A stretch of 64,000 nt of DNA. Source: Bacilli bacterium. Lineage in GTDB: Bacteria; Bacillota_I; Bacilli_A; RFN20; CAG-826. The notes below the pieces were generated by a model. The model did no database searches. It had not been told where the DNA came from and saw only the letters and a list, made by a program, of their open reading frames with translations. Positions 1 to 26,778 of the stretch are shown here, piece after piece (position 1 is the stretch's first letter; each line of letters starts with the position of its first letter). A program made the position numbers and the translations under genes. Location: NCBI GenBank assembly GCA_024408505.1, contig JAKSUZ010000002.1, positions 65,337 to 129,336 of the forward strand, given 5' to 3'.

Positions 1-264
1 AAAAAATTATTTAATGTAAACAAATTTTTTAATTTGTGCGATTTTTCGGACAAAAAATCTACAAAAATTTTTATTTCCCTGCTTTGTGGAAGGATAAAAA
101 ATGCGTGTAAGCGCGAGAAATTAGAAAAAAGTTAACTTTTGCATGGTTTGGTTAACTTTCTTTAAAACTCAAAAAAAATTATATTTATTTATAAATAAAT
201 ATTCTTAGCCTCCGTGAGGATTTTTGTCATTTTTTGTTAATTAACTAATAGGAGGAATTTTAAT

Positions 265-510
265 ATGTTAAAAAATAGAACACCATTGGATGAATTCGCT
301 AAATTATTAGAAAATCCATCACATGATTTATCAGTAGATGTGTATAATGGAAATAAGAAGATCCAGGAGAAAGGTGTGAAGAAGCGTAAATCTAAATACA
401 CATTGAATGAGATTGGTGATGCTTTGTTTGAACTAATTAATCGTTTTGACTATGTGGTTAAGACTAATAACCTAAAAGATTTATCTAAACAAAAGCGTAT
501 GAAGAAATAA
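265..510 (+). CDS. small Lys-rich hypothetical protein (81 aa)
   Basis: AGGAGG at 250-255 lies 9 nt before the ATG. No family recognised. Its 3' half is duplicated downstream. Confidence 0.5.
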   Translation: MLKNRTPLDEFAKLLENPSHDLSVDVYNGNKKIQEKGVKKRKSKYTLNEIGDALFELINRFDYVVKTNNLKDLSKQKRMKK

Positions 511-558
511 GAAGATCCAGGAGAAAGGTGTGAAGAAGCGTAAATCTAAATACACATT
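350..558 (+). repeat. pair of perfect 55-bp direct repeats (350-404 and 504-558)
   Basis: Identical string GAAATAAGAAGATCCAGGAGAAAGGTGTGAAGAAGCGTAAATCTAAATACACATT read at both positions. The second copy overlaps the stop codon of the 81-aa ORF. Confidence 0.9.
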
Positions 559-684
559 AAACGAGCTTTGTTTGAGTTTATTAAAACCACTAACGCTCGT
601 TTTGACAGAATAGAATCACGTATTGATTGTATTGACGCTCACCTTGATTATAACGGTCTTAAGCAGTTACCAGAAAATAAATAA
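504..684 (+). pseudogene. frameshifted partial duplicate of the 3' part of the 265-510 gene
   Basis: After repeat copy 2 the sequence parallels copy 1 but lacks 10 nt (ATTGGTGATG). The homologous frame reads ALFEFIKTTNARFDRIESRIDCIDAHLDYNGLKQLPENK* (stop 682-684), compared with ALFELINRFDYVV... in the intact gene. Confidence 0.4.
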
Positions 685-687
685 TAC

Positions 688-1806
688 TTAGAAATCACTA
701 TAGTTCATATCAAACACTATTTTCGTAGTGTAACTAGGATATATTTTACTTATTTCTTTTTCTACTAGTTTAGTGATGTCGTTCTTTTGTTTAACTAAGC
801 TAAAATCAATTCCGATATCTAAAGATACCCTTTTCTCTTTTTGATTAATATATACACCATGAACACTTAAAATGCCTTCTTTATCCTTTAGGGCATCTTT
901 AACCATTTTTCTAATCTTTTCGGTATTAGAGTTAACCGAATATAATCCTACAGTTAAGAAGATATCGTATTTCTTAAGAATGCTATCTTGAATCATAGTG
1001 GTTAAAATATGGAATTTATCGATTCCCAATTTATTATCCACTTCGACATGAACTGATCCAATCGCAAAATCAGGACCATAATTATGAATCACTAAGTCAT
1101 AAGCGCCTATTACATTAGGAAATTTAGATATTTCTTCTTTAATTTGCTTAGTGATATTAGCATCGGGTCTAATACCAATTAGTTTAGAAGCAGAAGTTAA
1201 GATAATCGTAATACCAGTTCTTAATACGAATATAGAGATTAAGACGCCTACAATACCATCAATTGAATAATTAGTGGTCATCGCGACAATAATAGCGATT
1301 AAAGTCGAAGTAGATATAATCGCATCTAAGATGGCATCAATACCTGAGCCCATTAAAGCATCAGATGAATATTTCTTACCTTTGATACGAGTAAAGATTC
1401 CTAACGCTAATTTAACGACAATAGCTAAAGATATAACAATAAGTTGTGGCCAACCATATTCAGGTAAGGTAGGAGTAATAATCTTCTCAATGCTTTCTTT
1501 AATAAATAAAATGCCAGTCGCTAAAATAATCGCTCCAATGATAAGAGAACTAAAATATTCAATTCTTCCAAAACCATATGGATGTTTCTTAGTGGGATTT
1601 CTTTTTGATAATTTAACTCCGATTAAAGTAACTACAGATGACACTGCATCGGTTAAATTATTAACCGCATCAAGAATAATCGCAATTGAATTAGCGATAA
1701 TTCCTACGACCGCTTTAGCCGCAACTAACAATACATTAGTGATAATTCCAATCGCACTAACTTTAACAATGTTCTTTTGACGAACAGTACTATTTATTTT
1801 CTTCAT
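688..1806 (-). CDS. cation diffusion facilitator (CDF) family metal efflux transporter
   Basis: Six predicted TM helices. HPYGFGRIEYFSSLIIG motif and a C-terminal cytoplasmic domain typical of CzcD/FieF-type CDF proteins. Confidence 0.85.
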   Translation of the reverse strand: MKKINSTVRQKNIVKVSAIGIITNVLLVAAKAVVGIIANSIAIILDAVNNLTDAVSSVVTLIGVKLSKRNPTKKHPYGFGRIEYFSSLIIGAIILATGILFIKESIEKIITPTLPEYGWPQLIVISLAIVVKLALGIFTRIKGKKYSSDALMGSGIDAILDAIISTSTLIAIIVAMTTNYSIDGIVGVLISIFVLRTGITIILTSASKLIGIRPDANITKQIKEEISKFPNVIGAYDLVIHNYGPDFAIGSVHVEVDNKLGIDKFHILTTMIQDSILKKYDIFLTVGLYSVNSNTEKIRKMVKDALKDKEGILSVHGVYINQKEKRVSLDIGIDFSLVKQKNDITKLVEKEISKIYPSYTTKIVFDMNYSDF

Positions 1807-1875
1807 AAGGACATTTTATAACATATTTATATCGTTGATATATTAATTTAATATCATTATTTTCTCGTGAGATCC

Positions 1876-1945
1876 ATATTAACAAGATGCATCCAGAACG
1901 ATATGTCCATCTACAATGCCAACAGGAAACCATGCGGGTTTTGTT
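1876..1945 (+). repeat. copy A of a roughly 70-85 nt intergenic element shared with 8324-8407
   Basis: Ordered shared blocks ATATT.ACAAGATGC..TC..GAACG...TCCAT.TAC...CC.ACAGGAA...TG.GGGTTTTGTT. Lies upstream of the methyltransferase start at 1971. Confidence 0.6.
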
Positions 1946-1958
1946 TTATAGAAAAGAA

Positions 1959-1964
1959 TATAAT
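1959..1964 (+). promoter_or_regulatory. -10 box TATAAT 6 nt upstream of ATG 1971 (possible leaderless mRNA)
   Basis: TATAAT-N6-ATG with no Shine-Dalgarno sequence between them. Confidence 0.4.
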
Positions 1965-1970
1965 ATATGC

Positions 1971-2684
1971 ATGAATGAGTTTGATAAAATCAAAGAGAAA
2001 GCCGAAGTCAACTATCAGAATTACAAAATCGATGATGGTTTAAATTGGTATGAAGTAGTCGATAAAGTTTTGAATAAAGTTATATATCGAATTCTAGATA
2101 AACATGATTATAGTGATGCAGTTATTTTAAATGCGGGTTCCGGTGGCCAAACCTATAACACTAAGGGTAAATTGATTCATCTAGATTTAGTAAAATCTAA
2201 TATTAAACAATTTGAACATTATTTAGTTGGTTCAATTGAATCCATGCCAATTAGTGATAATAGTGTCGACATTCTTATTTGCGTTGGTAGTGTGCTTAAT
2301 TACACTAACCAAGAAAAAAGTATTAAAGAGTTTAATCGAGTTCTTAAGAAGAATGGGATTCTTATTTTAGAATTTGAACGTAGCAATAGTGGAGAGTTCC
2401 TCTTTAATAAGAACCATCATAAACAATCGTTCTTACAAAAATACGAATACAATAAGCAAGAACATTTATTAATGATGTACAATGAGAAATTTATTATTAA
2501 CCAACTCAAGGATAACGGTTTTAAATTAGACTACAAAAAACGGTTTCATACATTATCTACCCTTTTATATAGGTTAGGGATGAAAGAGGAGCGCGCTGCT
2601 AAATATGCGAAAGGAGATTGGTTACTTAAGCCACTATCTTACTCTTTAGCGCATAACGTTGTTTTGGTATTAACTAAAATTTAG
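1971..2684 (+). CDS. class I SAM-dependent methyltransferase
   Basis: Motif I ILNAGSGGQ; DILICVGSVLNY and LKKNGILILEF blocks. The ORF-track start at 1887 overlaps intergenic element A and has no RBS, so I prefer the ATG at 1971 (MNEFDKIKEK). Confidence 0.75.
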   Translation: MNEFDKIKEKAEVNYQNYKIDDGLNWYEVVDKVLNKVIYRILDKHDYSDAVILNAGSGGQTYNTKGKLIHLDLVKSNIKQFEHYLVGSIESMPISDNSVDILICVGSVLNYTNQEKSIKEFNRVLKKNGILILEFERSNSGEFLFNKNHHKQSFLQKYEYNKQEHLLMMYNEKFIINQLKDNGFKLDYKKRFHTLSTLLYRLGMKEERAAKYAKGDWLLKPLSYSLAHNVVLVLTKI

Positions 2685-5566
2685 GCAATTTCTTTTACTT
2701 CTTTAGAATTAACATTTAATTGATATGTATGAGCGTTTCCTAATACTAACTTAGGAATATAATTCATGAAATATAAGTTAGATCCCATGAACGCTAAATC
2801 AGAAGCATAATATTTTAAACCTGTACCAGTATCATAACCTAATATTAGTTTTTGAGTATCTTCTCCAACGGCCTCTTTACTAACCCGATAAAATCCGGCT
2901 TTAGAAGGTTTGGAAATAGGGTAGGAATAATAATAAATATATCCATCATAATCAACCATTTCATTCGGATTAGTATCGGTCTTGGCAAGTATATATTCTG
3001 AGCCTGGAGCAGAGAAAAAGGTTAATCTAATAGAGTTATCAGTAATCCCATTATAAATGTAAAAGATATCATTGCCATCAATAGTAAATTGCTTTACGTT
3101 TTTGGTAGTATCAGAAAAAACTTCAGATTTCATGTCTTGAGATGTAGGGGTGATATCTGGATATCTAATCGATTCAATCTTCCCGTTATCTTGTCCGGTA
3201 CTGCAATTAATAAAGTAAAGCCGCTCATCGGTGTTTCTAATTACAAAGTTTTTAGCGCCATTAATATTAGAGAATTTTACATATTCACTGCCATCAAGTT
3301 TCATTCTAGCTATACCGCCTGCTGTGCCCACAAAATTATAATGGGTGCCATAAATATACTCGCCATCCGTTATCATATTTCTTAAATCGTTATTATTTAT
3401 TTTTACCGTTTCCGAACTTACATTCAAATCCGCGCAATAAATATCATTATTTGTGAGTAAGGTGACTTGATTGAAATAAATTTTGTTGTTATGAATGAAG
3501 AAGTCTTCTACCTTATCAGTTGATAATTGGTAGCTTTTCTTTGTTTTTTCATCGTAATAACATAAGGTTTTACCTGCATACATATCAAGATAATAAACTC
3601 TACTACCATTTGCTATAGTACGCCCACCGGTATTCACTGGTGTATATTCTGGTTTTACAAATCCCGCTAATAAATCAGTCTTAATTTTACTAGAAGGATC
3701 GTACCGATAAAGATGTAAATCGTTAGTATCAGTGTATACAACCGAATAATTATCTTCAATATCAAATCCATTTACATTTCCAGTTTCAACAAGGTGATCT
3801 TCTTCTTTGGAAATAACATCCACCGACCAAACTCCGTACTCAGAAGGATCAACCGCTCCAAACCAATCGGTGTAATTAAAATAAACTTTGTTATTTTTAA
3901 CTTTTAAAAATTCGCCTGCTTTATTAGTTAATTTGATAACTTCATTGCTATTAGAGGATAAGCTAATATAACCGATGTAATCATTAACAGTACCATTAAC
4001 TGAACAGTAAAGTGTCTTGCTATGAATAACAAACTCATGCATTTTTTCCTCTGATACCTTAATTGGATCAGTTGGAGTGGTTAGGTTAAATTTGTAAATT
4101 AAACTATCTTTGGCATTAATAAAATACAAATCATTATCATAAATCTCAAGGTTATCAGCTTTCCCTTCATAGATTTTAGTTACAACCGGTTCGGTTTTGG
4201 TGTCAGTTGTATCGACTTTATAAATTCCTGAAGCGCCTGATGTTAATAAATTCTTTGAGTAGTAATAAACGTTGTCACTATATTTTACGAAGTCATTTAT
4301 TTTAGAATCGGTATATTTTAATGTAGTCGTATTGTTATTAATGCTTTTAATAGAATTAATTAATGGAGTATTCGCATTAAATAAAATTTCTGAACTACTA
4401 TATCTTTTAATATTTTTAGGTGCAGAATAGTCAATTCTAGCAAAGGTGCCATCGGTTTTTAATGAATATAAGCGTTGAGAATCTAAACCATTAGCAAAAT
4501 AAATATCATCACTTCCAGTCACATAAACCGGCATATATTTTCTTTGTTCTTTAATAGTTAATGTTGCGGTTAAAGTTAAAGTAACATAATTCTTATTAGT
4601 TATAACAATTGAGTAATCATACTTGCCTACTGCTTTTGCTTCTTTTACTTCTTTTCCTTGATATTTAACGGTTTGTTTTGTATCCGTGCCAGATGGTAAA
4701 TTTCCAATTAATTTAACATCCTTTATATGATCAGCCCCATCATATATAACAATCTCACTATTATAAGTTAATCCTTGGAATTCAGCTGGAGCAATAGTTA
4801 AAGTGGCTTCAAGAATTTTCGTCTCATATCCCTCCTTAACTAAAGTAGCAGTTGCTTTATACGAACCTACATCGGTATATTCGTCTCTACCACTATAGGT
4901 AATAGTAGTGTCTTCTGGGGCGCCTTCAACATCCCCTAATTTATGCTTATTCCCGTCATAGGTTACAGTTGAAGAAGAGAAAGTAGCATCATCGAATTTA
5001 CCTCCTCTAATAGTCAAAGTTGTATCAAATCGAGCGGTTATGTAATTTTTATTTGTTAATGTCACTGAATAATAATAAAGACTAGGATCAATTGCTTTAT
5101 CTACTTTTTGGCCTAACCTATTTTTAACCTCTTGTGTTTTACTCGTGCCAGACGGTAGTTCTCCGGTTAATTTAACATCGTTAAAATGATCTTTACCATC
5201 ATAATCAAGCGATACGCTTTCATAAGTAAGACCGCTAAATTCAGCTGGATTAATGTTTAAAGTAGCCGTAAGCGTTATGGTTTTGTATTCTTCTTTAGAT
5301 AAAGTCGCACTAGCTTTGTAAGTTCCAACATCAATTTGAGGTACTCTGTCATCATAAACAATATTAGTACCCTCCGGAGCGCCTCTTACTTCGCCTAATG
5401 TATGCTCTTTACCATCATAAGTAACATTTATTGAATCAAAATAAACGTCCTTAAATTCCTTTTCCTCTGGTGTAGGAGGAGTTGGTGGTGGTACATCTCC
5501 GGCGCCACAAGAAACTAAAGGGGCAATCATTAGGCATAAAGCCACTGCAATCAAAGATTTTTTCAT
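2681..5566 (-). CDS. large surface lipoprotein with tandem MBG-like repeat domains and a C-terminal DUF5050-like beta-propeller
   Basis: Signal peptide plus lipobox MKKSLIAVALCLMIAPLVSC. A two-fold tandem repeat of about 150 aa (roughly nt 4550-5450) contains VTYDGKEH..G.V.GAPE...I.Y units. The C-terminal 600 aa carries recurring hYF.N / hYY motifs. AAGGAG lies 7 nt upstream of the ATG. Confidence 0.7.
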   Translation of the reverse strand: MKKSLIAVALCLMIAPLVSCGAGDVPPPTPPTPEEKEFKDVYFDSINVTYDGKEHTLGEVRGAPEGTNIVYDDRVPQIDVGTYKASATLSKEEYKTITLTATLNINPAEFSGLTYESVSLDYDGKDHFNDVKLTGELPSGTSKTQEVKNRLGQKVDKAIDPSLYYYSVTLTNKNYITARFDTTLTIRGGKFDDATFSSSTVTYDGNKHKLGDVEGAPEDTTITYSGRDEYTDVGSYKATATLVKEGYETKILEATLTIAPAEFQGLTYNSEIVIYDGADHIKDVKLIGNLPSGTDTKQTVKYQGKEVKEAKAVGKYDYSIVITNKNYVTLTLTATLTIKEQRKYMPVYVTGSDDIYFANGLDSQRLYSLKTDGTFARIDYSAPKNIKRYSSSEILFNANTPLINSIKSINNNTTTLKYTDSKINDFVKYSDNVYYYSKNLLTSGASGIYKVDTTDTKTEPVVTKIYEGKADNLEIYDNDLYFINAKDSLIYKFNLTTPTDPIKVSEEKMHEFVIHSKTLYCSVNGTVNDYIGYISLSSNSNEVIKLTNKAGEFLKVKNNKVYFNYTDWFGAVDPSEYGVWSVDVISKEEDHLVETGNVNGFDIEDNYSVVYTDTNDLHLYRYDPSSKIKTDLLAGFVKPEYTPVNTGGRTIANGSRVYYLDMYAGKTLCYYDEKTKKSYQLSTDKVEDFFIHNNKIYFNQVTLLTNNDIYCADLNVSSETVKINNNDLRNMITDGEYIYGTHYNFVGTAGGIARMKLDGSEYVKFSNINGAKNFVIRNTDERLYFINCSTGQDNGKIESIRYPDITPTSQDMKSEVFSDTTKNVKQFTIDGNDIFYIYNGITDNSIRLTFFSAPGSEYILAKTDTNPNEMVDYDGYIYYYSYPISKPSKAGFYRVSKEAVGEDTQKLILGYDTGTGLKYYASDLAFMGSNLYFMNYIPKLVLGNAHTYQLNVNSKEVKEIA

Positions 5567-5577
5567 AGTAATTCTCC

Positions 5578-6870
5578 TTAAATATTATTTAACATTACCT
5601 TATTGTTTATTTCAATAGAAATAAAACTTTTTAAATATTCTTTTGCACACGCTAAAACTTCTTCATTTAATTCTTCAGGAAATAAGAAACCTTCATTTGG
5701 ATGATTTTTTATATATTGATATGCACCGTATACTCCAGCGCTTACTTGGCGAATCGTAGCAAGTTCATTTAATTCCTTTGAATCCAAATAATTAGCGAAG
5801 TATCTACTCTTAAAACGTTTACCTTGAATTAGAATACCTACTTCTTCTCCACCACTAACATAATCTTTTTTAGTTAGTAGTTTGTAGTTAGGATGTTTAT
5901 TATGAAAATTATCGTTAACTGAAGTAAGAGCAAGATTAGACGGATGATATAGGAAAATTACTGTAGGACGATATTTTTTATAAGTTAAATATTCACGCAT
6001 AGAGAAGATTTCTTCGTGACAAATTACATTAGCGGTAATTCTTCCTTTAGAATAAACCGTTTCTTCTTGATATTTAATGCCAGACGCTCTTAAGGCAATG
6101 TATTGATCTTTGATATCGATATCATAATAAGCATCGTGTTTTAGACAATTTTTAACATTATCATAAGCGATTTCAGGGCTACTAATCGATTCATAGTAGA
6201 ATGCTTTAGCGTTCCAAGGTGAATAAATAGTGTCAAGGTTACGCTCAATTGAGAACTTTTGATTATCAATATCAATTTCTTCAATCAAAGTGATTTTAAG
6301 TTTTTTGGCTACTAGATTATATTTATTATCTTTAATTAATTGTTTTAACTTATTCCTAAATAGGCGAACATATAAAGAATTATCTTTATTAATAATTTCT
6401 TTAATCGCTTCTTTCATAAATAAAGATACTAATCCCGGGTTCATTCCAAATTCAATAACTGAAGTTACTCCTTTATGCCCGTATTTTTCTCTAAGTTTTT
6501 TATATTCTAAGAAATGTTGATGGATACTAATCCAAGACTTATCATTCACCCAAGACGAATCTGCGGTAAATAAATAATGAATATTGTGATTTAAACAATA
6601 TTCTAGAATTGTTAAACTCTTCACATTAGTAGTAAAGTCAAATAAATAATCGCCTTCTTTTAATTCATTTAAAACACTCAATAAATTATCTTGTTCGATT
6701 TTAATGTTTTTAAAATTAGCGCGTTTACCACCTAACTTAAGAAAATCGTTAAGTTTATTCTTATCTTCTTCGACACAATAAAAAGTATTAGGATTGAATT
6801 TGCCTTTATCTTTTAAAATGTTTAAAAACGATTGGCCCACTAGGCCTAATCCTAATACGTAATATTTCAT
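5578..6870 (-). CDS. saccharopine dehydrogenase-family NAD(P)-binding enzyme, homospermidine synthase-like
   Basis: N-terminal Rossmann motif VLGLGLVGQ. The FGMNPGLVSLFMKEA block resembles the G.NPGLVS signature I recall from homospermidine synthases. Its start overlaps the stop of the upstream 87-aa gene. Confidence 0.5.
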   Translation of the reverse strand: MKYYVLGLGLVGQSFLNILKDKGKFNPNTFYCVEEDKNKLNDFLKLGGKRANFKNIKIEQDNLLSVLNELKEGDYLFDFTTNVKSLTILEYCLNHNIHYLFTADSSWVNDKSWISIHQHFLEYKKLREKYGHKGVTSVIEFGMNPGLVSLFMKEAIKEIINKDNSLYVRLFRNKLKQLIKDNKYNLVAKKLKITLIEEIDIDNQKFSIERNLDTIYSPWNAKAFYYESISSPEIAYDNVKNCLKHDAYYDIDIKDQYIALRASGIKYQEETVYSKGRITANVICHEEIFSMREYLTYKKYRPTVIFLYHPSNLALTSVNDNFHNKHPNYKLLTKKDYVSGGEEVGILIQGKRFKSRYFANYLDSKELNELATIRQVSAGVYGAYQYIKNHPNEGFLFPEELNEEVLACAKEYLKSFISIEINNKVMLNNI

Positions 6871-7133
6871 TAGATAACTTTAGCGCACTTAAGCAATGCA
6901 CAGAATAAACCGATAATCACACCAATTGCAAGTAACACTAGGAAGAACTTAAGTAATCTCTTACTTCTTCTTTCGCTAATCGCTTCTTGACGCGCTTCTT
7001 CTTGACGCTGATATTGAGCTAAACGAGCCTCCTTTTCTTCTGGAGTCATTTCGTCTAACTCTTTTTCGCTTGGCATGGTCGGCTTACTTGGTATATAGTC
7101 GCCACCGCCAAAACTTCCACCACCTGATCCCAT
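6870..7133 (-). CDS. small tail-anchored membrane protein (87 aa)
   Basis: AAGGAG lies 8 nt upstream. Gly-rich N-terminus, charged E/R/Q helix, single C-terminal TM helix (FFLVLLAIGVIIGLFCALL). Confidence 0.55.
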   Translation of the reverse strand: MGSGGGSFGGGDYIPSKPTMPSEKELDEMTPEEKEARLAQYQRQEEARQEAISERRSKRLLKFFLVLLAIGVIIGLFCALLKCAKVI

Positions 7134-7146
7134 AATTTAATCTCCT

Positions 7147-8046
7147 TTATTTAATTCTACCTATTATATAAAAAGGGAATGATACTGAAGCACATATCAT
7201 TGATAATGCTAATGCTATCCCAAAGATAAAGACTCCAACTGCTGCACTAATAATCCCACTTGCAATCTTTAATGGGATTAAAATAACTACATCTCCATCA
7301 AATAAATGACCTACAAAATAAACCGGAACTTTTACACTAGCAGTAGCAATATCCACAAACATCTCTGTAATATATGTATCCGAAAAAATACAATAAACTA
7401 CTGCTAAAACTAAATAGGCAAATAAAAATGCTAAACCTACCCATCCACCAGGACTAACGGCCTTACCGAATATTATTCCTAACACTAAAGTTAAAATAAA
7501 TGCAACTACTGCAGCGATAATTCCACCAATTAATGACTTATGCCCTTCAACTCCAGTAATTTTGCTTTTAAATTTACTAGAAGAAATCCCGCTTTTACTT
7601 TTAGTTGGGTGAACTTGTTCAATCTTTTGATCAAGCTCTAACCCTTTTTGATAGCATTCTTCACAAATCGTGACTTCAGTACGTTCACCATTATCGCGCC
7701 TAAATACTTTATGAGTAGATTCATTCTCGCCAATCTTACGATGACAATCATGACATGTTAACGCTCCATAATTTACGGATTCGCCCTCAAAGTCATTGAT
7801 AACGATATTTGTGGTGTCATTACCTTTGTCTTCTTCTTTTTGCTCTTCTTTTTGCCCATAGATTAAATCATCAAGCTTACATTCAAAAACCTCAGCCATT
7901 TTCTCAAGCATATCTAAATTCGGTTCAACTTCATCTTTTTCGTAACGTGAAATTGCTTGGGGTGAAATGAATAGACGTTCCGCTAATTGTTTTTGGGTTA
8001 GCCCCATTTTCTCACGATAGGTTTTTATGTTGCTTCCAACTTTCAT
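7147..8046 (-). CDS. membrane-tethered XRE-family HTH regulator with a zinc ribbon and a C-terminal polytopic membrane domain
   Basis: HTH IKTYREKMGLTQKQLAERLFISPQAISRYE. Cys pairs CHDCH...CEEC. About 4 TM helices. Start moved to the ATG at 8046 (MKVGSN), which has GAGG 9 nt upstream; the ORF-track start is 8100. Confidence 0.75.
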   Translation of the reverse strand: MKVGSNIKTYREKMGLTQKQLAERLFISPQAISRYEKDEVEPNLDMLEKMAEVFECKLDDLIYGQKEEQKEEDKGNDTTNIVINDFEGESVNYGALTCHDCHRKIGENESTHKVFRRDNGERTEVTICEECYQKGLELDQKIEQVHPTKSKSGISSSKFKSKITGVEGHKSLIGGIIAAVVAFILTLVLGIIFGKAVSPGGWVGLAFLFAYLVLAVVYCIFSDTYITEMFVDIATASVKVPVYFVGHLFDGDVVILIPLKIASGIISAAVGVFIFGIALALSMICASVSFPFYIIGRIK

Positions 8047-8148
8047 TCGTTTTGACCTCATGGGTTTATTTAACCGAAATACTTTAAAAAAGTAAATCAA
8101 CTAAATAGGGAATTGCTCAACAATTTGTGGAATTCTCTTACTAATTTG

Positions 8149-8157
8149 ATTATATCA
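8149..8157 (-). promoter_or_regulatory. extended -10 (TGATATAAT) candidate promoter for the 8046-2681 operon
   Basis: Reverse complement of 8149-8157 reads TGATATAAT, about 95 nt upstream of ATG 8046. Confidence 0.35.
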
Positions 8158-8323
8158 AATATCTATAAGCCTATCGCAGAATTAAAATACTCTTTAACTA
8201 TTTTTTTTAAAAAATAATAATGAAATATGATTTTTCTTAGATATGCATTGTGTCCCTTATATCGTACAAATAAAATATTTAATTTGATGTAATTTCTAAT
8301 TATGAGATTATATTAGTAGTCTT

Positions 8324-8407
8324 GATATTCACAAGATGCGTCTGGAACGGAAGAGCGTTCCATATACCTCCTTTACATTACCCACAGGAATTCCTGTGGG
8401 TTTTGTT
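8324..8407 (+). repeat. copy B of the intergenic element shared with 1876-1945; contains two hairpins
   Basis: Same ordered blocks as copy A. Extra hairpin GGAACG-GAAGAG-CGTTCC (8345-8362). Perfect 20-bp palindrome CCCACAGGAATTCCTGTGGG (8381-8400) followed by TTTTGTT. Confidence 0.6.
8381..8404 (+). terminator. intrinsic-terminator-like hairpin (8-bp stem, AATT loop, T-run)
   Basis: CCCACAGG AATT CCTGTGGG TTTT. No annotated plus-strand gene ends here, so it would terminate a short unannotated transcript or act as an attenuator ahead of the WYL gene. Confidence 0.45.
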
Positions 8408-8487
8408 ATTGTATATGTACTAAATATTGGACATATGGATGCATTCATTTTAGAATTGTTTTATATTATTACTACGAGGTATAAGTT

Positions 8488-9495
8488 ATGACTGGAAAGA
8501 AAGCAAACATCATGTTGGTGTATAAGATTTTAAAGGAATATAGTGACGATAAGAATCCTTTAACTCAACAACAAATCATTGATTTAATTAATCAAACCTA
8601 TGGCGTAGAGTTAGAGAGAAAAAGTGTCGCTAGTAGTCTACAAATACTTCGTGATGATCTTGATTATGATATTAATAAAGGTGCGAAAGGTGGCTTTTAT
8701 TTAGGTGAGAGATTATTTGAGCCTAGTGAAGTTAATTATTTAACCGATGCAATCTTTTCATCTAAAGCCTTAAGTGGAAATTATGCGAAAGATTTATATA
8801 GTAAGGTGCTTAGTGTATTATCCGTTAATTACCGAAAGAATTATCGACCGATGTATAAATGTGATGAAGTCGATCGAACTGAAGATAAAGAATTCTTTAT
8901 GACCATTGATACGATTACTCATGCGCTTAGACATAACCGTAAAATCTCTTTTAAATATATAACTTATGACGAGAACCTTAACGTGGTTCCTAGAGTTAAG
9001 AATGGAAAAGACACAACTGTTATCTCCCCATTACATATGGTGTACTCTAGGGGCTTATGTTATTTATTAGCGATTCCTGAAGAACATAAGGAATTAAAAG
9101 ATTTAACTCCTTTTAGAATCGATTATATGCGAGACGCAAAAGAAGTAGAAAATAGTCGTAGAGATAAAGCTACGCTTATTCCTAAATATAAAAATGGTTT
9201 TGATATCGCTGATTATTTAAATAACCATATTTATATATTTGGTAGCAACGAAAAAACTAAAATTAAATTATTAGTCAAGAAGCCTGATGCAATTCGATAT
9301 TTGAAAGAATGGTTTGGTAAAAGCGTAGGCTTAAAGAAAGAAGGAAATAAGATTATCGCTACTTTAACTAGCGATGAACAAACATTCTTCTTTTGGATTA
9401 TGCAATATAGTGAACACTACACATTACTTGAACCTAAGAGTTTAGTGAAAAAAGTTCGTGAAGCAGCGCAAAATATATTAGATACTTATAAGTAG
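8488..9495 (+). CDS. WYL-domain transcriptional regulator (wHTH-WYL-WCX architecture)
   Basis: N-terminal winged HTH (NPLTQQQIIDLINQTYGVELERKSVASSLQIL). Central WYL-like block ISFKYITYDENLNVV...ISPLHMVYSRGLCYLLA. C-terminal extension. GAGG RBS upstream. Confidence 0.75.
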   Translation: MTGKKANIMLVYKILKEYSDDKNPLTQQQIIDLINQTYGVELERKSVASSLQILRDDLDYDINKGAKGGFYLGERLFEPSEVNYLTDAIFSSKALSGNYAKDLYSKVLSVLSVNYRKNYRPMYKCDEVDRTEDKEFFMTIDTITHALRHNRKISFKYITYDENLNVVPRVKNGKDTTVISPLHMVYSRGLCYLLAIPEEHKELKDLTPFRIDYMRDAKEVENSRRDKATLIPKYKNGFDIADYLNNHIYIFGSNEKTKIKLLVKKPDAIRYLKEWFGKSVGLKKEGNKIIATLTSDEQTFFFWIMQYSEHYTLLEPKSLVKKVREAAQNILDTYK

Positions 9496-9503
9496 GAATA
9501 AAT

Positions 9504-11000
9504 ATGATAACTAAAACGCTTTATGTAAACTATGCATCTTGTCCAAGACAATTTTATTACGCGATGTTTCATCCGGAAGAATTAGATACCGATAGCGATT
9601 ACGCGAAGGGGATTATTCAAAAAGGCGTAATTATTGGTAAGGTTGCGCACTTATATTTTAAAGACACCGCTAAAGTTAATGTAGGTAAGATTCCTAATCT
9701 AGAACTACAAATTGAAACTACTAAGAAATTAATGCTAGATCCTAAAACTGATGCGATCGCCGAAGCTTCATTTAAATATAATGACTTATATTGCGCAGTT
9801 GATATTTTAAAAAAAGATGGAGATGGTTGGGCGATATATGAAGTTAAAGCTAGTGTAGATGCTGAAAAAGATAAATATTATCCTGATGTGGCATTTCAAA
9901 AATATGTATTAGAGAAATGTGGAATAAAAATCAATCACTGTTATTTAATGCATCTTAATCGTGATTATGTAAGACATGGAGATATTGATGTCAATCAATT
10001 GTTAATTCCTGACTCATACATATACGACGAGAAATTTATTGAAGTAGAAAAGATGATTGATTCTAATCTAGATGATGCTAGAAGGATGATTGATAATAAG
10101 CAATTACCAGACTATGGACCACACTGCACTAAAAGTTGTCCGTTCTTTGGCTTTTGCCATAAAAGCTTACCAATTCCCAACTTAACAAGTATCAATCATT
10201 TCGAAGCGAATAAGGCGCATGAATACTTTAAGCAAGGAATTGTGACTTATAAAGACGCACTCGCAGCCGGACTCGAATTAAAGACTAAAACCGGTAATCT
10301 CCGTAAAGAGGTCCAAGTTAAAGTTGGAGTAAGCGGGGTCTCTCCCTATATTAATAAAGAAGAAGTATCTAAATTCCTACATCAACTACAATATCCACTT
10401 TATCATTTAGATTTCGAAACCTATGCAGAGCCAATTCCGCCTTTTGATGGCGCGCATACATACCAAGTAGTGCCTTTCCAATATTCTCTTCATATTGAAA
10501 AGAGTCAAGGCGGGGAACTTATTCATAAAGAATTTTTAGCGGAGAAAATGGATTCAATGCGTGAACTTGCTGAACAATTATGTAAAGACATCCCGATGGA
10601 TGTAACTAGCATTGCCTTTAACGCTGCATTTGAAAGAAATGTTATTAAACATTTAGCGGAGAAGTTCCCGGATTTAAGCGAACACCTCACTAATATTCAA
10701 AATCATATTGTAGATTTAGCGATTCCGTTTATGAAAGGTTACTACTACGACATTAAACAAGGTGGATCTAATTCCATTAAATACGTCATGCCAGCCTTAT
10801 GTCCTAAAATGGAAGATGCTTATCATAATCTCCCCTTTGTTCATAACGGAGGCGAAGCGATGACTGCTTTCCCACGTATGATGGAAGAGCCTAAAGATAA
10901 CGACTATCAAAAGAAACGTCAAGGTATGTTAGATTATTGTGGACTAGACACTAAGAGCATGGTTGAAGTCCTTAACGTCTTATGGAAGGCAATTAAATAA
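9504..11000 (+). CDS. DUF2779-type protein: N-terminal Cas4/RecB-like PD-(D/E)xK Fe-S nuclease plus C-terminal RNase H-fold (DEDD-like) exonuclease domain
   Basis: Motifs C13 (SCPRQFYY), D100 (AVDIL), E113-x-K115 (YEVKAS), QxxxY (FQKYV) and Cys cluster HCTKSCPFFGFC. C-terminal half has LYHLDFETY...YQVVPFQYSLH, the block I associate with DUF2779. Starts 8 nt after the WYL gene stop. Confidence 0.7.
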   Translation: MITKTLYVNYASCPRQFYYAMFHPEELDTDSDYAKGIIQKGVIIGKVAHLYFKDTAKVNVGKIPNLELQIETTKKLMLDPKTDAIAEASFKYNDLYCAVDILKKDGDGWAIYEVKASVDAEKDKYYPDVAFQKYVLEKCGIKINHCYLMHLNRDYVRHGDIDVNQLLIPDSYIYDEKFIEVEKMIDSNLDDARRMIDNKQLPDYGPHCTKSCPFFGFCHKSLPIPNLTSINHFEANKAHEYFKQGIVTYKDALAAGLELKTKTGNLRKEVQVKVGVSGVSPYINKEEVSKFLHQLQYPLYHLDFETYAEPIPPFDGAHTYQVVPFQYSLHIEKSQGGELIHKEFLAEKMDSMRELAEQLCKDIPMDVTSIAFNAAFERNVIKHLAEKFPDLSEHLTNIQNHIVDLAIPFMKGYYYDIKQGGSNSIKYVMPALCPKMEDAYHNLPFVHNGGEAMTAFPRMMEEPKDNDYQKKRQGMLDYCGLDTKSMVEVLNVLWKAIK

Positions 11001-11360
11001 TTAACCATTTTTAGTTTTTTTAGCTTTATTTAACAAGTTGAAAGTTTCAACCGTCAATATTGGTCGCCAATTGGTACTCTGATTTAAAACTCTGATTATT
11101 TCTATTGCACGGGTCAAATTATTCACTGAATAATAAACTATATAGTCATTAACGATTAAATAACGTGCATCAAAACTCGCAAAGAAAGATTTATTGTGTA
11201 TTCTTTTTCCTAATTCAGGGAATGTAGGCAATAATCTAATTTGCTTAACAATATTTTTAGTAACTGTTTTTGCGGAATGAGGATTTAAAAAGGATATATA
11301 AGAATAAACTTCTTTCATATCCCTCCTCGCGCTTAAAGAAATGGTGAGGGTATATTTCAT
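11001..11360 (-). CDS. type II toxin, RelE/ParE family
   Basis: 119 aa. Overlaps the upstream antitoxin gene by 4 nt. ParE-like pattern (A..D..E.Y.YI...NP..A...... LP.FPELG...... RYLIVNDYIVYY). Confidence 0.75.
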   Translation of the reverse strand: MKYTLTISLSARRDMKEVYSYISFLNPHSAKTVTKNIVKQIRLLPTFPELGKRIHNKSFFASFDARYLIVNDYIVYYSVNNLTRAIEIIRVLNQSTNWRPILTVETFNLLNKAKKTKNG

Positions 11361-11605
11361 AATCCTAGATCTTTTTCAATATCTTCAATTGTACAAGTGC
11401 GACCGTGTCTAATGTCATCGATTCCTTGCAAAAGTTTTTTCTGCAAATCCAGTGTTTCTAAAAGAATCTCCAATGACCCCGCGTCCATAAGGACAGTATC
11501 TTCTTTTCCGTTTACCGTAATGTATACAGGCTGTTTGGTTTTTTTAACGTAAGCGGACATTTCTTTATAGTTATTACGTAAATCCGCTGATGGTCTAATA
11601 TTCAT
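11357..11605 (-). CDS. type II antitoxin, Phd/YefM family
   Basis: 82 aa. N-terminus IRPSADLRNNYKEMSAYVKKTKQPVYITVNGKEDTVLMD is typical of Phd/YefM antitoxins. Sits upstream of and overlapping the toxin gene. Confidence 0.75.
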   Translation of the reverse strand: MNIRPSADLRNNYKEMSAYVKKTKQPVYITVNGKEDTVLMDAGSLEILLETLDLQKKLLQGIDDIRHGRTCTIEDIEKDLGL

Positions 11606-11650
11606 AATATTACCTCCAATAAGATATCATAATTATATCATGACATTATT

Positions 11651-11682
11651 TAAAATAAAAACTCGCTCATTGCTGGGCGAGT
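11651..11682 (-). terminator. rho-independent terminator downstream of the 11698-13122 gene
   Basis: 8-bp stem ACTCGCTC/GGGCGAGT (11661-11682) with a 6-nt loop. On the minus strand it is followed by TTTTATTTTA. Confidence 0.7.
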
Positions 11683-11697
11683 TTTCTAATAGATTAA

Positions 11698-13122
11698 TTA
11701 AGGATTACAAACAATCCAACCATTAGGGATATGGCTAGAATCGCCATATGTTCCAGAATTTTTTAGTCTCTTAAGATTGGTTTCGCCATTCCAGATAAAA
11801 TATTTAGGACCATAAAATTCGCCTGTATCATTGGCCAACCAATCGGTCGTGTTACAACTCCAATTGGCAGAACCAGCAGTACCCGAATTAAGTTCAATTA
11901 AATTTAATTTAGGGCAGTTTTTAAACATGCTTGAATCCGCGAACGAGAAAATGTGCGCTTCCTCCAAATTAGAACAACCCTCAAACATACCGTTAAAAGT
12001 TTCGTGGTAAAATGCAATAGAGGCAGAATTAGTTGTAAGAATTAAGGGCGCTTTTGTTAAATATTTACAATTCTTAAACGCATGTTCAAACGCCTTGCCT
12101 CCAGGTTCAAAACCTTGACCAGAACTTCCTGAATTATCGCTTTTAGGGACTGCTGGCGCAGTTTTTATAGGAAAACCATTAAAGAAATCAGCAAAACCTT
12201 CCACTGGAATTCTCGTATTAAAATCTAATAAGGAAAGTAAATTTCCAGAAGCATTGAGTGTTACATTATTTGTATCACAAATAAATTGAGCATGGCCGGT
12301 AGAGATATATGGCCACTCTGTTGATGTTGTTGTAACGAGATATTTGTCGCGATTCCAAAAACGAATTTGATCACCAGCATTCAATATTGGCAAAGATTTA
12401 GTTACGTCATTCCATTTTGTCCAATTCGCTGACGCTGGGTCTTGCCATTTTTCACCAGCCTTACGTATTTGATAATATAGATTGTTACACGATATTGTGG
12501 ACCCAAGCGTTAGTATTAATTTTAAATGCATCGTCGTACCATCATCATTAGCGGTGAGTGTGAAATATTTTTCGTATGCTTCAGCGCTAATTTCGATTGG
12601 ACCAGTAATCGCATCTTTTTTAATTGTTATTTCTGTTCGAGGAACGGGGTCTATATATGATTTTGGCGTAAAATTTCGATACAGTCTGCCGCTTATCGAA
12701 ACATCAAAGAACGGCGCATCGGTCGGAATTGTCCACTCTTGAGAATAGTAACCATCATTGAGATAGAAATTAATAATTAAATCGTTGGTGTGTTCCGCAA
12801 CGGTTTTGGCAATTTTTAATGTTTTTGAATGAAGTACAATATCATCGTAGGTATCACTCCATTTTGCGTATAGAGTCACGTTGCTACAAATCGGTTGATC
12901 AAAATTAAATTTGCATTTAAAACTATCGTTATCAAGATACCAGCCTTCAAAATTATGTCCTTCTTTAGTTGGATTATCAGGAACTTCCACTGGCGAATCC
13001 ATCGCAATGGTTTGTGAAGCGATTTCACTTCCACCGTTTGTGTCAAAAGTGACTTGGCAGCCATTATTACAACTAACTAATGGAGCAGTTATGAACGGAA
13101 TTATTAATAATGCTTTTTTCAT
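11698..13122 (-). CDS. lipoprotein with an N-terminal Listeria-Bacteroides (Flg_new) repeat and C-terminal BspA-type LRR-like repeats
   Basis: Lipobox ITAPLVSC. VTFDTNGGSEI...P.NPTKEGHNFEGWYLD....F.F..PI..NVTLYAKW. C-terminal FKNCKYL / FEGCSNL / FKNCPKL repeats. Paralog of the next gene. Confidence 0.7.
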   Translation of the reverse strand: MKKALLIIPFITAPLVSCNNGCQVTFDTNGGSEIASQTIAMDSPVEVPDNPTKEGHNFEGWYLDNDSFKCKFNFDQPICSNVTLYAKWSDTYDDIVLHSKTLKIAKTVAEHTNDLIINFYLNDGYYSQEWTIPTDAPFFDVSISGRLYRNFTPKSYIDPVPRTEITIKKDAITGPIEISAEAYEKYFTLTANDDGTTMHLKLILTLGSTISCNNLYYQIRKAGEKWQDPASANWTKWNDVTKSLPILNAGDQIRFWNRDKYLVTTTSTEWPYISTGHAQFICDTNNVTLNASGNLLSLLDFNTRIPVEGFADFFNGFPIKTAPAVPKSDNSGSSGQGFEPGGKAFEHAFKNCKYLTKAPLILTTNSASIAFYHETFNGMFEGCSNLEEAHIFSFADSSMFKNCPKLNLIELNSGTAGSANWSCNTTDWLANDTGEFYGPKYFIWNGETNLKRLKNSGTYGDSSHIPNGWIVCNP

Positions 13123-17417: not shown

Positions 17418-17456
17418 ATTTTTCCTATTTTTAAATAAAAAATATATAATATTTTT

Positions 17457-19001
17457 ATGAAGCAAAAATTATTCTTAACAATCGACATCGGTACGCAAAG
17501 TGTCCGAGTCTCTTTTATTAGTCCAAAAGGAGAAATAGTCGCCTTAAGGAAAGAAAGGTATCGTATACCTTACTTTTCTATGGAGCCTGGTTTTGCTGAA
17601 ATTGATCCAAATGTTTATATGACATATATCGGTAAAGCTTATCGTGAATTAATTAAAGAGCACAATCTAATTAATGATGTGATTGGCGTAGCAATTACTT
17701 ATTTCCGTGACTCAGTTGTAGTTGCTAAAGATGATATGGTTCCACTTCGCCCCGCAATTCTTTGGTTAGATGAAAGACGCGCGAAAGGAGAAGAAAAACT
17801 TCCTTTATTTAATAGAGCATTATTTAAACTACTCGGTGTGGGTGAACTTATTCGTTTAAATCGAATGAGGACTCCAGCGCATTGGATCAAAGAAAATGAA
17901 CCTAAGATTTGGAGTCAAGTTACCAGGTACATGAACCTCTCGACTTATATTAACTATAAATTCACTGGTGAATATAAAGATAGCGACGCTAACTCAATTG
18001 GTCATTTACCAGTTGATTATAAACATCGTCGTTGGTGTAAAAATAATCATAACCTTACTGGTATGATTTATGGCGTGGATGTTAATACCCTTTGCGAAAT
18101 GGTACCACCAGACGTCCCAATCGGTCGAATTACTAAAGAAGCTAGCAAAATAACCGGCATTAAAGAAGGCTTACCATTTTATGCCGTTGGTAGTGATAAA
18201 GGATGCGAGACCTTTGGTCTAGGCGCATTTAAGAATAATGTTGGTGCCGTATCATTTGGCACAAGCGCAACCATACAAACCACTAATAAAAGATATGTTA
18301 CTCCTAGACCATTATTCCCAGCCTATCCTAGTGTAGTGTCTGGTTATTTCAATACTGAAACTATGATTAATAAAGGTTATTGGATGTTAACTTGGTTCGT
18401 CCAGCAATTTTGTGAAAAACAAAAAGAAATTGCTGAGAGACAAGGCATCCCTACTGAACAAATGCTTAATCAATTTATCGCAAAAGTACCAATTGGCAGT
18501 AATGGTTTATTAATCCAACCTTATTGGGGACCAACTTTAACTAAACCATTAGCAAGAGGCAATATGATCGGTTTTACCGAAAGTCATTCTAAATATCACG
18601 TCTATCGTGCCATTATTGAAGGCATTGATTACGAATTAAAAGATGGATTAGAGTCAATTGAGAAAAGACAAAGGAAAAAAGTAACTTCGTTAATGATTTC
18701 GGGCGGCGGATCTCAAAGTGATGAAATATGTCAAATCGCCGCAGACATCTTTAACGTACCAGTTAGCAAGATTCAAACTTACGAAACCACTTCTTTAGGT
18801 GCAGCCATGGCAGGCTTCTTAGCCATGAAAGTATTTAAGACTCCTGAAGAAGCGATTGAAAAAATGGTTAAAATTACTAAAACCTTTAAACCAATTCCGG
18901 AGAACGTTGAATTATATAAATTCTATTACAAACAATACCGCAAATTTTATCCAGCCTTAAAGAAGCCGATTGAAGAGATTACCCTTCATGATGAAAAATA
19001 G
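17457..19001 (+). CDS. FGGY-family carbohydrate kinase (xylulokinase/ribulokinase-like)
   Basis: N-terminal LTIDIGTQSVR. FGTSA and ISGGGSQSD phosphate-binding motifs of the FGGY/actin-like ATPase fold. Confidence 0.8.
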   Translation: MKQKLFLTIDIGTQSVRVSFISPKGEIVALRKERYRIPYFSMEPGFAEIDPNVYMTYIGKAYRELIKEHNLINDVIGVAITYFRDSVVVAKDDMVPLRPAILWLDERRAKGEEKLPLFNRALFKLLGVGELIRLNRMRTPAHWIKENEPKIWSQVTRYMNLSTYINYKFTGEYKDSDANSIGHLPVDYKHRRWCKNNHNLTGMIYGVDVNTLCEMVPPDVPIGRITKEASKITGIKEGLPFYAVGSDKGCETFGLGAFKNNVGAVSFGTSATIQTTNKRYVTPRPLFPAYPSVVSGYFNTETMINKGYWMLTWFVQQFCEKQKEIAERQGIPTEQMLNQFIAKVPIGSNGLLIQPYWGPTLTKPLARGNMIGFTESHSKYHVYRAIIEGIDYELKDGLESIEKRQRKKVTSLMISGGGSQSDEICQIAADIFNVPVSKIQTYETTSLGAAMAGFLAMKVFKTPEEAIEKMVKITKTFKPIPENVELYKFYYKQYRKFYPALKKPIEEITLHDEK

Positions 19002-19021
19002 GCATTTAAAATATTACTTTA

Positions 19022-21626: not shown

Positions 21627-21685
21627 ATAACTTATAAATATTATAGCAAAAAACTGGCACTTTTTAAAGGTCTATTGTACTAATT

Positions 21686-23416: not shown

Positions 23417-23417
23417 A

Positions 23418-23774
23418 TTATTTCTCCTTTACTGGGATATTCATAGTCGCAATTAAATCAGCATCAGTGCCAGCGATATTTTTAATAATGATATCGCCTA
23501 CTTTTAGATTATCATTAACAGTAACTTTATTAATTTCATTCATTACTTTCATCATTTTACTTTTACTAACTGCTTTACTAGTGCGGCATGGTAAAACTGG
23601 GAAATGTTTAAAACTAGTTTTAACCGTTGAAGTAATACTTCTTTGTGGATTAGTAATTTCTTGTTTAGCGTATTCTAATCCTCTAGGGCATTTGTTGCCA
23701 GACGCTACTAGAGTAGCTTCATCGATTTCAATCGTGCATGAGTTTGGACAAATAATGCAAGATACTGTTTTCAT
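23418..23774 (-). CDS. DUF1667 domain protein (small Cys-rich subunit of the GlpA-like trio)
   Basis: CIICPNSC...GNKCPRG pattern. 118 aa. Conserved position after the two flavoprotein genes. Confidence 0.7.
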   Translation of the reverse strand: MKTVSCIICPNSCTIEIDEATLVASGNKCPRGLEYAKQEITNPQRSITSTVKTSFKHFPVLPCRTSKAVSKSKMMKVMNEINKVTVNDNLKVGDIIIKNIAGTDADLIATMNIPVKEK

Positions 23775-23776
23775 AA

Positions 23777-25036: not shown

Positions 25037-25038
25037 AA

Positions 25039-26733: not shown

Positions 26734-26778
26734 GTGCTTATTATAGCAATTTTATTTATATTTTATAAATAAAAATAT

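Follow-up and report, generated by a model that had tools for sequence, protein, structure and literature searches.

The window analyzed here is a 64,000-nucleotide stretch from a Bacilli bacterium of the CAG-826 lineage (GenBank assembly GCA_024408505.1, contig JAKSUZ010000002.1, positions 65,337 to 129,336 of the forward strand). It carries two adjacent plus-strand genes, which encode a WYL-domain transcription regulator and a DUF2779 (PF11074) protein with two nuclease halves. We propose, with a probability of about 0.5, that this pair supplies a nuclease that is induced by single-stranded DNA (ssDNA), depends on DNA ends, and acts, when induced, to restrict mobile or foreign DNA, being one of the exchangeable cargoes that a WYL-controlled defense slot can carry. 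This defense reading is favored because of the gene neighbors of DUF2779 and the cargo of the WYL family. The initial annotation had regarded the pair as a candidate defense or DNA-damage module built around a regulated stand-alone nuclease, a view that gains support from the genomic linkage, the neighboring genes and the conserved active sites. The features of the pair are as follows:

8476-8480, + strand: Shine-Dalgarno sequence GAGGT, 7 nt ahead of the ATG of the WYL gene, read from the sequence
8488-9495, + strand: WYL regulator gene, 335 amino acids (aa), with a winged helix-turn-helix (wHTH), a three-helix linker, a WYL and a WCX domain, DriD/PafBC-like
9504-11000, + strand: DUF2779 (PF11074) dual nuclease gene, 498 aa

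The two open reading frames (ORFs) are separated by 8 nt, just as first annotated, and a Shine-Dalgarno-like AGGA ahead of the nuclease ATG overlaps the 3' end of the WYL gene. The pair is kept in two relatives: in locus L081 with the same 8-nt gap and a DUF2779 protein 88% identical to that of the window, and in locus L193 with a 9-nt gap, a better Shine-Dalgarno sequence and a DUF2779 protein of 78% identity. Because both the pair and its 8-9 nt gap are conserved in relatives, the reading as a bicistronic operon, with co-transcription and the previously suggested, probable translational coupling, is well supported at the sequence level.

Structure of the regulator and the nuclease

Profile searches placed two domains on the regulator above the Pfam cut-offs, namely WYL (PF13280), with 32.1 bits (gathering cut-off 21.8), and WCX (PF25583), with 31.7 bits (cut-off 23.9) over residues 256-331. 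The PADLOC WYL hidden Markov model (HMM) matched the regulator at 2e-26. No Pfam HTH match was found in the regulator, the wHTH being seen from the fold only. An AlphaFold2 model, built from 34 homologs with a predicted local distance difference test (pLDDT) score of 90.2, is composed of the following parts:

Residues 4-72: winged HTH of three helices and a β-hairpin
Residues 79-116: helical linker, with helices 79-91, 97-108 and 113-116
Residues about 150-220: WYL barrel
Residues 240-334: WCX domain

The Pfam matches and the model thus bear out the winged HTH, WYL domain and C-terminal extension that had been read from the sequence.

DriD and PafBC are ssDNA-activated WYL activators of SOS-independent DNA-damage responses, and BrxR and CapW are wHTH-WYL-WCX repressors encoded beside BREX, CBASS and other defense systems. 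Structural similarity search of the PDB using Foldseek revealed full-length matches of the regulator to all four. DriD (8TP8) is the best match, with an E-value of 8.6e-14 and a template modeling (TM) score of 0.54; PafBC (9FND) matches at E = 4e-11, and BrxR (7T8K, 7QFZ) and CapW (7TB6, 9C5G) at E of about 1e-7 with TM scores of 0.31-0.37. A sequence profile of the subfamily found DriD at 3e-4 and PafBC at 1.3e-3, and gave no significant match to BrxR 7QFZ (E = 2). These profiles and fold comparisons were the informative approach, as a sequence search of solved structures with the single regulator and nuclease proteins returned no match. In addition, the motif RWHVR on a WYL strand, which defines BrxR and CapW (PMC11662680), is absent from the regulator, where GLCYLLA stands at that place. 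Based on the fold ranking, the profile scores and the missing RWHVR motif, the regulator belongs to the broad wHTH-WYL-WCX family and is nearest to the DriD/PafBC branch, not to the BrxR family. Of the BrxR, CapW and PafBC sensor types named in the initial annotation, the regulator is nearer to PafBC, together with DriD, than to the other two.

The regulator shares with DriD of Caulobacter crescentus and PafBC of Actinobacteria the length class of about 330 aa and the domain order of wHTH, helical bundle, WYL and WCX. However, it is only about 14-17% identical to them, its gene lies in an operon with one nuclease instead of being the master of a dispersed regulon, and the cargo of its subfamily is mostly of defense type. 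The regulator exceeds BrxR and CapW in length by about 45 aa, and its linker is closer to that of DriD; moreover, BrxR homologs are 97% proteobacterial, whereas the subfamily of the window regulator comes from Bacillota. In the profile alignment, Y192, F209 and R210 of the regulator align with Tyr192, Trp206 and Arg207 of DriD, among which Tyr192 and Arg207 contact ssDNA. The equivalent of DriD Arg204 is a threonine, and the conservation of the ssDNA-contacting residues is thus partial. In the characterized members of these branches, DriD, PafBC and CapW, the WYL domain binds ssDNA (PMC9186387, PMC11804915, PMC11662680), which is also the ligand of CapW (PMC11662680). By analogy, the regulator presumably senses ssDNA via its WYL domain.

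The nuclease matches PF11074 with 134.8 bits (gathering score 23.3) over residues 300-424, and its N-terminal half matches the PADLOC Cas4 HMMs at 3.7e-11. In the AlphaFold2 model (pLDDT 93.6, predicted TM score 0.88), two catalytic domains are distinguished:

Residues 1 to about 225: Cas4-like PD-(D/E)xK domain with a four-cysteine iron-sulfur (Fe-S) site
Residues about 295-498: DEDDy exonuclease of putative RNase H fold

Foldseek aligned the N-terminal half to the Cas4 structures 7MI4, 4IC1 and 4R5Q at probability 1.0. For the other half, the RNase H-like/DEDD matches were weak, namely 3'hExo (4L8R, 1.5e-2, probability 0.84), the RNase H domain of Prp8 and the exonuclease of Pol nu, and the order of the secondary-structure elements in this C-terminal half agrees with an RNase H-like fold. 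Across 196 homologs of 31-100% identity, the PD-(D/E)xK center (D100, E113, K115, Q132) and the Fe-S ligands (C13, C208, C212, C218) are invariant or nearly so, and D303, E305, D404, Y478 and D482 are invariant in 195-196 of the 196. The C-terminal half is of the DEDDy class, since D404, Y478 (in a Yx3D motif) and D482 join D303 and E305. DEDDy domains are 3'-5' exonucleases. The earlier division into a Cas4/RecB-like and an RNase H-fold half is upheld by the Cas4 fold and by the DEDDy residues, with the C-terminal fold matches being weak. The catalytic residues are conserved across homologs, as that reading demanded; among the motifs then listed, C13, D100, the ExK at 113-115 and the cysteine cluster are conserved, and the supposed QxxxY is really Q132-K-Y134.

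The dual-nuclease architecture is not new. In 2014, Majorek et al. put DUF2779 in a 3'-5' exonuclease clade (F.17, RNase H-like) and noted its DUF83/Cas4 association (PMC3985635), and a paper of 2026 dissected MMSYN1_0389 of JCVI-syn3.0 as a Cas4-like and DEDDy fusion (PMC13621843). The window nuclease shares with MMSYN1_0389/UU173 the Cas4-like plus DEDD(y) architecture and the catalytic residues (PMC3985635, PMC13621843), but it is not a member of this Mollicute subfamily, scoring 53.2 bits against NCBIfam NF045869 (UU173/MMSYN1_0389) versus a cut-off of 225. The Mollicute proteins are longer (~650 aa) and quasi-essential, retain only two of the four cysteines and have not been described with a WYL partner, whereas the window nuclease keeps all four cysteines. 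The core of D..ExK, Q and a four-cysteine Fe-S site is also found in the solo Cas4 nucleases SSO0001, Pcal_0546 and ACE1 and in the AddB/AdnAB domains. Unlike the solo enzymes, the window protein is fused to a second nuclease of opposite polarity, and has no Cas, prokaryotic Argonaute (pAgo) or helicase partner within the window. Solo Cas4-family enzymes thread ssDNA ends, and ACE1 is an end-requiring ssDNA nuclease used in defense (PMC12094033).

Cas4 and DEDDh nucleases separately trim prespacers or small interfering DNA (siDNA) and guides (PMC13621843, PMC12094033), and the PADLOC WYL and Cas4 HMMs matching the two window proteins are CRISPR-derived models; by this token, the pair could be an accessory that helps to process spacers in CRISPR adaptation or guides for an Argonaute. 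We regard such a role as scarcely credible. The nuclease scores under the curated Cas4 cut-offs (PF01930, 20.6 versus 22.7; TIGR00372, 22.5 versus 65), Tandem Repeats Finder detected no repeat array in the window, and there is no cas1, cas2, other cas or pAgo gene among the 25 most frequent Pfam/PADLOC families of the 131 immediate DUF2779 neighbors described below.

Genomic neighborhoods of the two families

Around the 80 best-scoring, species-representative DUF2779 loci, which come from Bacillota, Bacteroidota, Campylobacterota, Spirochaetota, other phyla and one methanogen, the neighboring ORFs were clustered. The WYL regulator is the most recurrent neighbor family, present within 6 kb in 20 of the 80 loci: 16 were found by phmmer with the window regulator, and four more, all from Campylobacterota, carry a second WYL/WCX cluster. 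The WYL gene adjoins DUF2779 directly in seven loci, either upstream or downstream. When the 131 immediate neighbors were scanned blind with Pfam and PADLOC, WYL again came first in both libraries, with seven members, as the initial reading had demanded; the expected number is about 0.3 if WYL genes account, as a general rate, for some 0.1-0.2% of bacterial genes. As the linkage recurs in unrelated lineages with varying gene order, it argues for a functional link.

A non-functional adjacency, in which the WYL gene regulates something else and DUF2779 is an unrelated neighbor, would agree with the majority of DUF2779 genes, which have no WYL neighbor, and with the nearest WYL relatives, which have no DUF2779. 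It is nevertheless very improbable in view of the conserved 8-9 nt gap, the recurrence in unrelated lineages with differing gene orders and the excess of WYL genes among the immediate neighbors.

DUF2779 genes often lie among defense-type genes, as had been suspected. The 131 immediate neighbors include a defense-type dGTPase (four, E = 7.7e-66), PDDEXK_4/PDC-S26 (four), McrB-like AAA_5 (three), type II restriction enzymes (two to three), GmrSD/HEC-06 (two), and one each of PDC-S11, MkoA, MkoC (Mokosh), a DRT-associated DUF1848 and LlaJI. One locus has Abi_2 directly upstream of DUF2779 as well as a methyltransferase, and another is an island of NERD, MrcB_N, MazG, MazE and Fic genes. On plasmids, some DUF2779 operons include large ATPases and a dGTPase, and others include NERD, AAA, metallophosphoesterase and WYL genes. 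In one such plasmid (Aliarcobacter pM830MA, 1-12991), DUF2779 lies inside a same-strand run whose other products include an AAA/SbcC-like ATPase of very large size, a hypothetical protein of 779 aa, a further AAA protein and a dGTPase, and the end of the gene for a 954-aa ATP-binding protein overlaps the DUF2779 start.

Unidirectional arrays in Clostridia run, for example, in the order FtsH-like AAA+M41, metallophosphoesterase, DUF2779, PDDEXK_4, WYL, and in the order WYL, AAA+lid_6, DUF2779, PDDEXK_4. Arrays of WYL, an AAA+AAA_lid_6 ATPase, a soluble FtsH-like AAA+M41 protein, a metallophosphoesterase, PDDEXK_4 (PDC-S26) and DUF2779 were seen in loci L030, L076, L058, L077, L048, L012, L023 and L173, the last on a Selenomonas plasmid, and their FtsH-like protease has a weak similarity to IetA. 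These recurrent arrays of WYL, ATPase, protease, phosphoesterase and nuclease genes may represent a multi-gene WYL-controlled system. A tblastn search of the window for the AAA+lid_6 ATPase, the FtsH-like protease, the metallophosphoesterase and PDDEXK_4 gave no match. Among the DUF2779 homologs, a fusion search found no WYL-DUF2779 fusion, only a His_Phos_1 fusion and unannotated extensions. The rare N-terminal fusions are to a His_Phos_1 histidine phosphatase (P0216) and to a segment with a Sigma70_r3 match (P0210).

The reverse census covered the 80 closest metagenomic relatives of the regulator (30-43% identity), with a positive control run. None of them has DUF2779 within 6 kb, and the WYL-DUF2779 link is therefore one-sided. 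A same-strand gene follows within 150 nt downstream in 65 of the 80, and 27 of these 65 genes are recognizable nucleases or defense genes: PDDEXK_4/PDC-S26 (10), metallo-β-lactamase-fold nuclease (6), GmrSD/HEC-06 (5), HEC-05 (4, E = 1e-225) and UzuA (2, E = 4e-47). A soluble FtsH-like AAA+M41 protein is encoded in 19 of the loci. Because the subfamily carries varied nuclease and defense genes in the downstream slot, the regulator family behaves as BrxR does, as one sensor with interchangeable cargo, of which DUF2779 is one. BrxR in Proteobacteria is likewise one regulator with interchangeable defense cargo (PMC9122601), and the window subfamily resembles BrxR and CapW in co-localizing with diverse cargo of defense type.

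Nearer homologs have other arrangements. A WYL homolog of 76% identity (P0123; loci L168 and L192, GCA_024408435.1) is divergent from a DUF2779 allele of 43% identity, and one of 49% identity is divergent from an FtsH-like gene. The P0123 gene adjoins the same cation-efflux gene as in the window, and the same metagenome-assembled genome (MAG) has a further DUF2779 paralog (L002). The exact P0123 sequence is also recorded in GCA_024500545.1, which holds a DUF2779 protein identical to that of the window. In loci L088-L167, from rumen and gut metagenomes, small unannotated proteins (~140-190 aa; clusters 4, 14 and 16) are often encoded directly upstream of the WYL gene on the same strand, and one of these clusters has a faint similarity to DUF3427.

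PF11074 is a moderately large family, with about 4,400 clusters when grouped at 50% identity (E <= 1e-10); the length of the DUF2779 homologs is almost uniform, about 490-510 aa. Identity is nearly flat, 33-42%, across Bacillota, Bacteroidota, Campylobacterota, Spirochaetota and a methanogen, and one MAG carries two paralogs. On account of this flat cross-phylum identity and these paralogs, the sequences fit an accessory, horizontally moving gene. A phage origin was rejected, as DUF2779 is nearly absent from phage genomes (seven partial matches in 50,697) and viral contigs (18 loci in 2.9 million). It is also rare on plasmids (32 of 72,556).

Promoter region and hairpin element

The 390-bp intergenic region ahead of the WYL gene holds the following elements:

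8251-8268: distal palindrome TGTCCCTTATATCGTACA (TGTnC-N8-GnACA), candidate second WYL-binding site, kept at the aligned position in L081
8319-8411, + strand: hairpin element, with hairpins at 8319-8337 and 8343-8362 and an intrinsic terminator-like hairpin with a T-run at 8375-8406
8416-8433: proximal palindrome TGTACTAAATATTGGACA (TGTAC-N8-GGACA), candidate operator of the WYL protein, the right half of which doubles as the -35
8428-8456, + strand: predicted sigma-70-type promoter, TGGACA, 17 nt, TAGAAT, 10 of 12 matches, a consensus match only

Three copies of this palindrome class are present in the window, two of them in this region. Both of the latter are retained in L081, and the proximal one is also conserved in L168, where the 116-bp gap that separates the divergent WYL gene from its DUF2779 gene holds just one copy. 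Across the WYL family, the palindrome occurs within 200 nt upstream of 28 of 95 genes, against an expectation of 0.019 per 280 nt, or about 1.8 genes; the class is about 15-fold enriched upstream of family genes, peaks in the -500 to 0 bin, and precedes -10-like hexamers by 10 or 17-18 nt. It is thus the likely, predicted operator of the WYL protein. Its position fits either repression in the style of BrxR and CapW or DriD-style activation, with the site replacing the -35. At DriD promoters, a pseudo-palindromic site overlaps the -35 (PMC13004042), as the palindrome does in the window, but the half-sites differ, TGTnC-N8-GnACA here versus ATACGAC-N7-GTCGTAT for DriD. A candidate inverted-repeat operator near the regulator's own promoter is also a likeness to BrxR and CapW (PMC9122601, PMC9122589, PMC9122588).

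The third palindrome copy, TGTGCGATTTTTCGGACA, lies at 35-52, ~210 nt upstream of an unannotated 81-aa ORF (265-510) with a good Shine-Dalgarno sequence, and the surrounding 19-120 is 89% identical to L081. This copy may be a further target of the WYL factor or may have arisen by chance.

A terminator-like element had been annotated at 8324-8407, and the region indeed folds into three hairpins (8319-8406), the last of which resembles a plus-strand terminator. The element, which sits exactly between the two palindromes, has a minimum free energy of -34.4 kcal/mol (z = -5.1). It is ~95% identical in L081, with the sole change in the terminator falling in the loop. It is single-copy, not a repeat, matches no Rfam family at E <= 5, and there is no plus-strand gene upstream on which its terminator could act. 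It may be a small RNA, a leader or attenuator, or an insulator. Two small ORFs overlap it. A 51-aa plus-strand ORF (8336-8491) that overlaps the WYL start was rejected as coding, as it has no Shine-Dalgarno sequence, contains the terminator, and differs from L081 by 11 aa changes for about 14 nt changes. A minus-strand 16-aa ORF (8371-8357) lies behind a perfect Shine-Dalgarno sequence; it is poorly conserved and does not look coding.

Proposed circuit, alternatives and local context

In the proposed circuit, a dimeric wHTH-WYL-WCX factor would bind the palindrome overlapping the -35 of its own promoter. Binding of ssDNA by its WYL domain would alter the activity of the regulator, the ssDNA arising from DNA damage, phage replication, or the entry of plasmid or conjugative DNA. 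The response would raise the expression of the DUF2779 nuclease, a helicase-less dual enzyme that would degrade DNA with free or single-stranded ends, its Cas4-type Fe-S half acting from 5' ends or on ssDNA and its DEDDy half in the 3'-5' direction. By removing ssDNA, the nuclease would switch off its own inducer. We infer the sign of regulation, the substrate, the feedback and the defense role.

Several observations weigh against this reading. Within the window, the pair is surrounded by surface-protein and metabolic genes, with no classical defense island, and PADLOC-DB v2.0 matched the nuclease by generic Cas4 models only, in the N-terminal half, leaving the C-terminal half without a match. 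About three quarters of the DUF2779 loci have no nearby WYL gene; many DUF2779 neighbors are housekeeping genes, and some loci are purely metabolic. The census itself took in the 80 loci with the highest scores, with ORFs from a crude caller, and the expected number of WYL neighbors rests on a general rate. The regulator most resembles DNA-damage activators, and a WYL homolog of 51% identity is divergent from an AddAB-like helicase-nuclease pair, which hints that some WYL members regulate double-strand-break processing. In that locus (L169), the AddAB-like pair (UvrD+PDDEXK_1 and PDDEXK_1/Cas4) spans 63-5668 and the WYL gene 6001-7029. Furthermore, a Mollicute DUF2779 member is quasi-essential in JCVI-syn3.0, and an M. 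bovis member surfaced in a cell-culture survival screen (PMC13621843, PMC7373297), which suggests a housekeeping role for at least the Mollicute branch.

Part of this evidence would suit DNA-damage repair, in which damage-derived ssDNA prompts a DriD/PafBC-like activator to switch on a nuclease for the cell's own broken or cross-linked ends. This nuclease would then correspond to AddAB/RecJ or to the MrfB exonuclease, without a helicase of its own. Besides the kinship of the regulator, the AddAB-like partner of its 51% homolog and the quasi-essentiality in syn3.0, this alternative can draw on the DriD regulon, which includes nucleases such as bapE and recJ (PMC13004042), on the mitomycin-repair exonuclease MrfB as the best HHpred match to the DEDD half (PMC13621843), and on one DUF2779 locus beside the Tag and Ogt repair genes. 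However, the distribution of DUF2779 is patchy and suggestive of horizontal transfer, with paralogs in one genome, its neighbors are often restriction, Abi, dGTPase, PDC or HEC genes, and known or candidate anti-phage genes predominate in the cargo of the WYL subfamily. CapW shows, too, that ssDNA-sensing WYL factors control defense systems (PMC11662680). Repair is a possible, though on the whole unlikely, explanation, and a role against mobile DNA is more likely.

The Mollicute data would also agree with housekeeping nucleic-acid turnover or nucleotide salvage, in which the dual exonuclease would serve to recycle fragments of DNA or RNA, and the WYL gene would do no more than regulate itself. 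Phosphatase partners recur in keeping with this idea (a metallophosphoesterase near DUF2779 in six loci, and the His_Phos_1 fusion), as do the purely metabolic contexts of some loci. The window protein lies well outside the Mollicute UU173 subfamily, though, and a salvage enzyme would not be expected in so tight and conserved an operon, beside an ssDNA-type sensor and with defense-type neighbors, which makes this explanation improbable.

The reading as an inducible nuclease against mobile DNA can be extended into a wider picture, which is speculative and doubtful as a whole. DUF2779 proteins would form a widespread, hitherto unrecognized class of enzymes that destroy DNA ends as single proteins and without a helicase. 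In Bacillota, their coupling to DriD-like ssDNA sensors would make a self-limiting circuit, in which ssDNA of an invading or replicating element turns on the nuclease, which then clears away the invader ends as well as the inducer. In minimal Mollicutes, they would supply the missing RecBCD/AddAB-type activity that makes the family quasi-essential, and the hairpin element would be the small RNA or attenuator of the circuit.

A WYL sensor with an adjacent effector is a known kind of system. In the literature searched, neither a WYL and defense linkage of DUF2779 nor a DriD-like WYL branch with swappable defense cargo in Bacillota was found. PF11074, to which a quasi-essential gene of the JCVI-syn3.0 minimal cell belongs, thereby gains a testable hypothesis, that of an inducible nuclease on ssDNA or DNA ends, and the WYL-DUF2779 pair is a small two-gene cassette suited to testing it. 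The picture of a regulator with swappable cargo, known from proteobacterial BrxR and CapW, extends to a DriD/PafBC-like branch in gut and rumen Bacillota, and the predicted operator consensus could serve as a beacon for more cargo genes.

The window is collinear with L081 in several blocks, interrupted by insertions:

565-1863: cation-efflux gene, collinear with L081
1864-8280: insertion relative to L081, with a methyltransferase, a DUF5050/MBG lipoprotein, a saccharopine-dehydrogenase-like gene and an HTH_3 membrane protein
8281-11001: WYL/DUF2779 block, collinear with L081
11002-17417: 6.4-kb insertion relative to L081, with ParE/Phd, two List_Bact_rpt lipoproteins and others
11001-11360: ParE, confirmed by profile search
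11357-11605: Phd, confirmed by profile search
17418-19022: glycerol kinase, collinear with L081
19023-21676: insertion relative to L081, with GH127 and Fic genes
21677-26776: further collinear block shared with L081

The conserved WYL/DUF2779 pair thus sits in a strain-variable region. The ParE/Phd toxin-antitoxin pair that had been noted beside it is indeed present, but its adjacency is incidental, because the insertion that holds it is missing from the collinear L081; it is no evidence for a module, and ParE/Phd was rejected as a part of one. The notion of the pair as a cassette set in wholly different flanks was likewise rejected, as synteny shows the pair at a constant position, flanked by the genes for cation efflux and glycerol kinase.

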